Below are positions 7,546 through 7,765 of a DNA stretch of 64,000 nucleotides, piece after piece. How positions within the stretch are numbered: position 1 is the stretch's first letter; every line of letters begins with the position of its first letter. The DNA comes from Escherichia phage ECO111 5-P. Position numbers and translations under genes: made by a program. The stretch is from sequence record OR844765; one strand, 5' to 3'. A model generated the notes under the pieces. It saw only the letters and a list, made by a program, of their open reading frames with translations. It searched no databases and was not told where the DNA came from.

Positions 7546-7719
7546 ATGACGAACATCCCGACTTCTGAAAATTTCGATAAAATCCGTAAAGGCAAAGCAG
7601 AAAGAACGAGACGTTTTAAAGAGTCTTATGATAAAGCTAAAGCCGAAGGAACTATTACGTACAAGCCCATTCGATTTAAAAGTTCAAATGAGCCTCTGTA
7701 CGGTGTACTATGTGGATAG
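7546..7719 (+). CDS. Hypothetical protein (57 aa)
   Basis: ATG with GAGAGGTGA SD; ends just before a terminator; below ORF-track size cutoff. Confidence 0.35.
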   Translation: MTNIPTSENFDKIRKGKAERTRRFKESYDKAKAEGTITYKPIRFKSSNEPLYGVLCG

Positions 7720-7742
7720 GAACTCTTCGGAGTTCCTTTTTT
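7719..7742 (+). terminator. Rho-independent terminator, UUCG tetraloop
   Basis: GGAACTC-TTCG-GAGTTCC followed by T6. Confidence 0.7.
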
Positions 7743-7765
7743 GCTTTATAAACGGATGATAGAAT
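7742..7765 (+). promoter_or_regulatory. Middle-type promoter (MotA-box-like TGCTTTA, then -10 TAGAAT) for gene 47
   Basis: TTGCTTTA at 7741-7748 and TAGAAT at 7760-7765, 11-bp gap; fits T4 middle promoter architecture. Confidence 0.55.

Follow-up and report, generated by a model that had tools for sequence, protein, structure and literature searches.

Composite elements that join a stem-loop terminator to a promoter directly downstream of it have been described in T4-type phages. For the so-called PeSLs, terminator activity, promoter activity and recombination between copies were shown experimentally, the mechanism having been demonstrated in RB49 and phi1 (Arbiol et al., 2010, PMC2839356), and a version with a TGCTT Mot box and a -10 element was later named PmSL (Comeau et al., 2014, PMC4122927). 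In T4, P39 (start 5349), P47 (start 36576) and PmobB (start 38682) are identified middle promoters (Table 1 of Hinton, 2010, PMC2988021, which for P39 and P47 cites Guild et al., 1988, on MotA activation, and Hsu and Karam, 1990). When placed on the T4 sequence, these published starts lie 6-7 nt past the -10 element, and exactly 7 nt past the TATAAT hexamers of P39 and P47, and each of the three promoters has a CUUCGG hairpin abutting [A/T]GCTTTA-N11-13-TAnAAT: T4 reads AAAGGCC-TTCG-GGCCTTT-AGCTTTA-N12-TATAAT upstream of gene 39 and AAGGGC-TTCG-GCCCTT-TAGCTTTA-N12-TATAAT upstream of 47.1/47. Such a hairpin is found at or just before the box in 4 of the 30 mapped middle promoters in the first 50 kb of T4 (P39, P47, PmobB and P43). 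Tuerk and colleagues are said to have described hairpins with C(UUCG)G tetraloops in T4 intercistronic regions in 1988, in work that reportedly concerns RNA loop stability rather than pairing with a promoter; the C(UUCG)G closure is common to the four T4 hairpins and to both hairpins described below.

For RB69, which belongs to the same genus as the phage analyzed here, additional files 4 and 6 of Nolan et al. (2006, PMC1524935) give the predicted middle promoters Pm:5538 (gene 39) and Pm:40046 (gene 47), and the same source gives TransTerm terminators at 5535-5546 ('60plus39<--RB69ORF005c') and 40044-40061 ('47<--a-gt.2'), both with a score of 100. Promoter and terminator coordinates overlap there as they do in this phage; in these files they stand as separate coordinate listings, which carry no discussion of a fused unit, and 3 of the 32 predicted middle promoters listed (39, 47 and uvsX) directly follow a predicted terminator. 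Both RB69 promoters carry the same MotA box as the sites reported here; a single base, in the -10 of the gene-47 site (TAAAAT), separates RB69 from this phage, the gene-39 site being identical. The arrangement is already known, from T4 mapping in 1988-1990, from prediction in RB69 in 2006 and as a composite type named in 2010-2014. Since PeSLs and PmSLs have been published and the loci were already mapped (T4) or predicted (RB69), the two sites are best regarded as members of a named kind.

The stretch of DNA analyzed here, referred to as the window, comprises 64,000 nt of Escherichia phage ECO111 5-P (OR844765) and is 98-99% identical to many genomes of Mosigvirus (RB69-like T-even phages). 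Its early and middle genes lie on the + strand, in the order 55, through a-gt.5 to a-gt.2, 47, 46, 45, 44, 62, regA, 43 ... uvsX, 41 ... motB, cef, goF, 39.2, ORF141, 39, rIIA, rIIB ... 52, motA ... asiA. The two sites under study lie upstream of genes 47 (site 1) and 39 (site 2), and the features to which the text refers are the following.

7546..7719, + strand: a-gt.2 homologue (57 aa) upstream of site 1; Pfam DUF5486, E = 1e-26; annotated as a-gt.2 in relatives
7717-7719, + strand: TAG stop of the a-gt.2 homologue, overlapping the start of the site-1 hairpin
7718-7737, + strand: putative terminator hairpin of site 1, AGGAACTC-TTCG-GAGTTCCT
7737-7742, + strand: run of six T, the putative terminator U-tract, whose last bases form the 5' part of the MotA box
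7739-7748, + strand: putative MotA box of site 1, TTTTGCTTTA, fitting the consensus (a/t)(a/t)(a/t)TGCTT(t/c)A
7757-7765, + strand: putative extended -10 of site 1, TGATAGAAT, with the hexamer TAGAAT at 7760-7765
7771..7773 (~7772), + strand: predicted transcription start of site 1, 7 nt past the -10, by analogy with T4 P47 and P39
7778-7782, + strand: Shine-Dalgarno sequence GAGGA of gene 47, with the ATG at 7789
7789-8808, + strand: gene 47 (Mre11/SbcD-like nuclease subunit), downstream of site 1
41443..41868, + strand: gene for a 141-aa protein (ORF141), homologue of RB69ORF005c, upstream of site 2
41866-41868, + strand: TAA stop of the 141-aa gene, abutting the site-2 hairpin
41867-41882, + strand: putative terminator hairpin of site 2, AAGGGC-TTCG-GCCCTT, with its G-C core at 41869-41880
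41881-41885, + strand: run of five T, the putative U-tract, overlapping the MotA box
41882-41891, + strand: putative MotA box of site 2, TTTTGCTTTA, with the TGCTTTA core at 41885-41891
41901-41909, + strand: putative extended -10 of site 2, TGATAGAAT, with the hexamer TAGAAT at 41904-41909
41915..41917 (~41916), + strand: predicted transcription start of site 2, by analogy with T4 P39 (start 5349)
41921-41926, + strand: Shine-Dalgarno sequence GAGGAG of gene 39, with the ATG at 41932
41932..43752, + strand: gene 39 (topoisomerase II large subunit, 606 aa), downstream of site 2
53137..53769, + strand: motA, encoding the activator expected to read both boxes; Pfam MotA_activ E = 2e-39, MotCF E = 2e-8
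55631..55903, + strand: asiA, encoding the co-activator that remodels sigma-70 region 4; Pfam AsiA, E = 2e-32

The product of motA matches the T4 MotA chain of the sigma-appropriation complex (6K4Y_M) over its full length (E = 2e-51). Its N-terminal (activation) domain is highly conserved with respect to T4 (E = 1e-34), whereas its C-terminal part, which binds DNA, has diverged far more (E = 1e-6 against 1KAF), and the Mot box consensus is apparently unchanged despite this divergence. Gene 39 has the unsplit 39+60 form, without the T4 mobA insertion and without the gene 60 bypass, and the 141-aa protein upstream of it has no Pfam match.

At each site, a G+C-rich stem-loop and 5-6 T stand directly after a stop codon, which is the anatomy of an intrinsic terminator. 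The site-1 hairpin, AGGAACTC-UUCG-GAGUUCCU as RNA, consists of 8 pairs with a UUCG loop and has a folding energy of -13.9 kcal/mol (z = -3.2); the site-2 hairpin is short, with 4 G-C and 2 A-U pairs, and reaches -9.4 kcal/mol, at a z of only -1.2. An Rfam search of the whole window returned no matches. The original prediction of a UUCG hairpin directly upstream of a MotA-like box is borne out by the anatomy of both sites (7718-7765 and 41867-41909), as is the predicted overlap of the box with the terminator T-run, since TTTTGCTTTA shares bases with the run in either case: the first base of the site-1 TGCTTTA core (7742-7748) is the last T of that run. Behind the box, TAGAAT follows after 11 nt at site 1 (TAAACGGATGA) and after 12 nt at site 2 (GATTTCGGATGA). 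The gap of 11-12 bp claimed originally therefore holds as the distance from the box to TAGAAT, with the correction that this distance includes GATGA. The promoter portions, described as nearly identical, do share a block; it is the 13-mer CGGATGATAGAAT and not a 14-mer, as site 1 continues with G and site 2 with A. Each of the two -10 elements is an extended one (TGnTAGAAT). A sigma-70 scan found no -35 hexamer and no -35/-10 promoter at either site, and the position 17 bp upstream of the site-1 -10 is occupied by TTTTTT. With a MotA box near -30, TAnnnT 11-13 bp further on, no -35 element, and both motA and asiA encoded in the same phage, the two sites have the composition of middle promoters, and in position and layout they correspond to mapped T4 middle promoters. 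Hairpin, box, -10 and ribosome-binding site are all housed in one short intergenic region (69 nt at site 1, 63 nt at site 2), in which the stem-loop is placed immediately upstream of the promoter.

The comparison with T4 reveals the same plan with different details. P39, P47 and PmobB share with the sites of this phage either the downstream gene (39; 47) or the upstream gene (a-gt.2, in the case of PmobB), as well as the CUUCGG hairpin, the [A/T]GCTTTA box, a spacer of 11-13 nt and TAnAAT. The left half of site 1, i.e., the end of a-gt.2, the hairpin and the box, is orthologous to the T4 PmobB cassette, with whose box TTGCTTTATAAA the site-1 box is collinear in an alignment, and the site-2 box is orthologous to the P39 box TTTAGCTTTA. 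T4 P39 and P47, however, combine a variant box, AGCTTTA, with a short T-run, whereas this phage has the consensus TGCTTTA after 5-6 T; the -10 hexamer is TATAAT or TAAAAT in T4 and TAGAAT here; and the gene-47 locus of T4 holds two cassettes split by mobB and a-gt where this phage has one. In T4, the annotated ATG of 47.1 overlaps the P47 -10 (locus L002, 3577-3590, minus strand) and the mapped start falls within the 47.1 frame, so that 47.1, as annotated, is untranslatable from the P47 transcript; in JS10, 47.1 has a normal leader with GAGGAG. With the PeSLs and PmSLs the sites share the stem-loop terminator directly upstream of a promoter, both placed in the stretch from a stop codon to the ribosome-binding site that follows. 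PeSLs have been described mainly in hyperplastic regions before ORFans and with sigma-70-type early promoters, whereas the sites of this phage precede core replication and recombination genes; PmSLs were reported in vibriophage nt-1, whereas this phage is an RB69-type coliphage. Taken together, each of the two sites is very probably an intrinsic (Rho-independent) terminator joined to a MotA/AsiA-dependent middle promoter, that is, a composite of the PmSL type.

The resemblance of the two sites could in principle have arisen by chance. A search for the fixed-spacing motif with up to 3 mismatches is uninformative in this respect, as it yields 2 matches where 0.89 are expected, and the exact motif occurs in 46 stretches of IMG/VR, most of which (40-odd contigs) are unrelated chance matches, so that only the Mosigvirus contigs are relevant. 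Within the window, however, the genome-wide motif search suggested with the original prediction finds the exact motif only at the two described sites, and a 121-kb Mosigvirus contig from IMG/VR likewise contains it only twice. When the composite was defined as a hairpin of at least 5 pairs, at least 4 of them G-C, ending no more than 10 nt from [AT]GCTT[TC]A-N11-13-TAnnnT, the window contained 2 against a mean of 0.016 per shuffle, and none of 500 dinucleotide-preserving shuffles reached two. Moreover, each site occupies precisely the interval that separates a stop codon from an essential middle gene, and both positions are conserved in T4, RB69, JS10 and many others. Conservation and shuffles thus rule out a chance resemblance for all practical purposes.

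Taken by itself, the promoter motif has 12 matches on the + (coding) strand against 1.43 expected, an approximately 8-fold enrichment. Since several further matches have orthologues among the mapped T4 middle promoters (for example 416 = PnrdD and 10435 = P46i(2)), the motif picks out real promoters. This bears on the alternative that the two sites are ordinary sigma-70 extended -10 promoters that fire without MotA, GCTTTA being merely the T-rich tail of the terminator. TGn is indeed found one base upstream of the -10 at both sites, and TGn/-10 promoters have been reported to be immune to inhibition by AsiA (PMC2988021). About half of the T4 middle promoters have TGn anyway, however, and the T4 counterparts of the two sites are themselves given as identified middle promoters in PMC2988021, which refers to Guild et al. 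(1988) for them. In addition, the spacing from GCTT(T/C) to the -10 is fixed in all orthologues, even where the T-run differs (as in T4, TTTAGCTTTA). Together with the enrichment of the motif, these observations make a purely MotA-independent promoter very improbable. Some MotA-independent activity is possible alongside MotA/AsiA-dependent initiation, because a TGn extended -10 can work without -35 contact.

The function of the hairpin can be approached through its conservation. Upstream of gene 39, 14 distinct Tevenvirinae loci have a hairpin in the same place, built from at least 6 different stems (GGGC/GCCC, GGCC/GGCC, GGAGC/GCTCC, GGAGCC/GGCTCC, GAGCC/GGCTC and GGGATCC/GGATCCC). Tabulated from the base pair that closes the loop, these stems reveal compensatory changes at positions 2-6; the T-run and GCTTT always come next, followed by the -10. 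MAFFT combined with RNAalifold found no pairs in these gene-39 hairpins, since stems of differing length were misaligned. Because the stems vary with compensatory pairs at a fixed position, the sequence comparison argues for selection on an RNA hairpin and U-tract joined to the promoter, and hence for the gene-39 hairpin as a selected RNA structure. Stems also differ upstream of gene 47 (GGAACTC/GAGTTCC in the window; GGAGC/GCTCC in T4, T2 and JS10). The gene-47 cassette is not universal, other T4-like lineages having a hairpin with an early-type promoter, a promoter before the hairpin, or no hairpin. In further T4-like lineages, a hairpin at the corresponding position upstream of gene 39 or 47 is followed by early-type GTTTAC-N17-TATAAT (upstream regions of loci L012 and L076) or by a TATAAAT-like sequence (L038, 1400-1500); the promoter class thus varies within a constant stop-and-restart layout. 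A T4-like IMG/VR contig (2974736276; locus L010, 1400-1500) has the opposite order upstream of gene 47: TGCTTTA-N12-TATAAT lies at the end of an upstream ORF, the final codons of which correspond to the end of T4 a-gt, and next come the hairpin AGCCCGGA-CCTCCGGGCT with TTTTT and, immediately after it, the ribosome-binding site. RNA started at that promoter would include the terminator-like hairpin.

How much transcription such a hairpin would stop is a separate matter. It might act mainly as a stabilizer of 3' ends, mostly shielding upstream mRNAs from 3' exonucleases, or as a weak attenuator that most polymerases read through ('delayed-early' transcription), with the promoter only adding expression. 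In T4, the U-tract of P39 and P47 is interrupted and leaves only a poor UUUAGCUUUA tail, which makes some read-through, or partial termination, likely there; T4 middle genes are expressed from middle promoters as well as from extended early transcripts (PMC2988021); and the terminator inside T4 mobE, where a middle promoter restarts nrdB transcription, stops only ~30% of transcripts (PMC2988022). By contrast, 5-6 uninterrupted T follow the hairpin in this phage and in most other genera, and the T-run is conserved together with the stem. Two independent predictors also call both sites: ARNold terminators are annotated at both places in the Mosigvirus PhAPEC2 record KF562341, and TransTerm gives the RB69 scores mentioned above. 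A hairpin that chiefly stabilizes or attenuates is therefore rather unlikely, and an intrinsic terminator is the preferred reading, whose action may well be partial. The original description of a stop-and-restart module is supported in so far as the T4 counterparts of the same layout are mapped middle promoters and both terminators are predicted in relatives.

Other hairpins in the window provide a context for these two. The six intergenic terminators on the + strand include two that are followed by a middle promoter and one that is followed by an early-type promoter. The 64 kb contain two middle-type copies, an early-type copy at 32411-32478 and a P43-type copy at 14352-14382. The early-type (PeSL-like) composite lies after soc and consists of the hairpin AAGGAATCC-TTCG-GGATTCCTT, a T-run and TTTACA-N17-TAAGAT with TG; it matches the RB69 terminator 'mrh.2<--soc'. 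Between regA and gene 43, the UUCG hairpin AATGGGAC-TTCG-GTCCCATT is directly followed by TGGAGTATAAT and is the counterpart of mapped T4 P43 (GGGGC-TTCG-GCCCC...TTTGGAGTATAAT, start 29933); its sole GCTT-like sequence is part of the hairpin loop, which puts it at a greater distance from the -10 than a normal Mot box would have. Two further terminator-like hairpins on the + strand, GGGGAC-TTCG-GTCCCC with TTTTTT (49161-49176) and AGGCCTA...TAGGCCT (51288-51307), lead directly into a ribosome-binding site and start codon; no promoter is recognizable in between.

PeSLs recombine, and it could be argued that the cassettes described here persist chiefly as homologous recombination linkers that shuffle modules, regulation being secondary. 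At the gene-47 locus, T2 has a-gt.2-[hairpin+promoter]-a-gt-[hairpin+promoter]-47.1-47 (locus L079, 1870-1945 and 3140-3190), T4 has the same with mobB added between the cassettes (locus L002, 3570-3650 and 5680-5760), and Mosigvirus (this phage and RB69) as well as Dhakavirus JS10 (locus L080, 685-755) have a single cassette between a-gt.2 and 47(.1). Cassettes thus stand at the boundaries of an indel between related phages, a-gt with or without mobB, and a module between two cassettes in one phage against a single cassette in another is what the PeSL model describes, with its mechanism shown in RB49 and phi1 (PMC2839356). Furthermore, the left halves of T4 P47 and P39 are identical at 25 of 27 positions, including the rare A in TAGCTTTA, and the only two differences are a compensatory G-C to C-G swap, which in the sequences hints at an exchange between these two cassettes. 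The right half of Mosigvirus P39 resembles the right half of P47 in Mosigvirus and JS10.

Against a primary role as linkers, the gene-39 cassette has stayed in place in many genera although its sequence has diverged, a constancy that fits local regulatory selection better than mobility. Outside the functional motifs, the two Mosigvirus promoters resemble each other modestly: their spacers are identical at 7 of 13 positions, which is no outlier among the promoter pairs of the window; as this value falls within the range of the other pairs, gene conversion between the two promoters of this phage is not claimed. Variants in RB69 and in locus L042 are confined to one cassette. Finally, a crossover of the a-gt indel inside the MotA box is not assignable, because collinearity between the single cassette and the left cassette of T2 and T4 extends past the -10 into the start of the leader (TAAAAT-AACCAA in JS10 and T2). 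Persistence chiefly by recombination is accordingly improbable. That hairpin-plus-MotA-box cassettes before T-even core genes act as short recombination linkers in addition to their regulatory role is a tentative suggestion, somewhat doubtful at present: exchange between two cassettes could account for the gain or loss of the a-gt (+mobB) module of T2 and T4, and cassettes 30 kb apart may occasionally convert one another.

For the regulatory reading, that is, an intrinsic terminator joined to a MotA/AsiA-dependent promoter, the following course of events can be proposed. RNA polymerase arriving from the upstream unit (55 to a-gt.2 at site 1; motB to goF to ORF141 at site 2) would transcribe the UUCG hairpin and the U-run, where part or most of it would be released. 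The DNA encoding the U-run, TTTTGCTTTA, would double as the MotA box: as soon as MotA and AsiA are available, holoenzyme with AsiA-remodelled sigma-70 would be recruited via MotA to the box and to TGnTAGAAT 11-12 bp downstream. Transcription would then start ~7 nt past the -10, ~35 nt beyond the hairpin, and the resulting RNA, having no hairpin, would escape termination there; its leader of 16-17 nt, which holds a strong ribosome-binding site, would lead into gene 47 or gene 39. For this phage, the efficiency of termination, the dependence on MotA and the precise start positions are predictions, and the transcription being stopped is presumably 'early'. Purely as speculation, polymerase released right at a promoter occupied by MotA could be more prone to re-initiate locally.

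As members of a described kind, the two sites open no new question, and the alpha-glucosyltransferase module, which lies between two cassettes in T2 and T4 as against one here, adds modest interest. Their recognition is useful for the annotation of T-even genomes and for the design of compact synthetic insulators. Their main significance is one of dual coding: the same dozen base pairs would serve as terminator U-tract in the RNA and as activator-binding site in the DNA, and within ~50 bp the phage would thereby close one transcription unit and open another with different timing.
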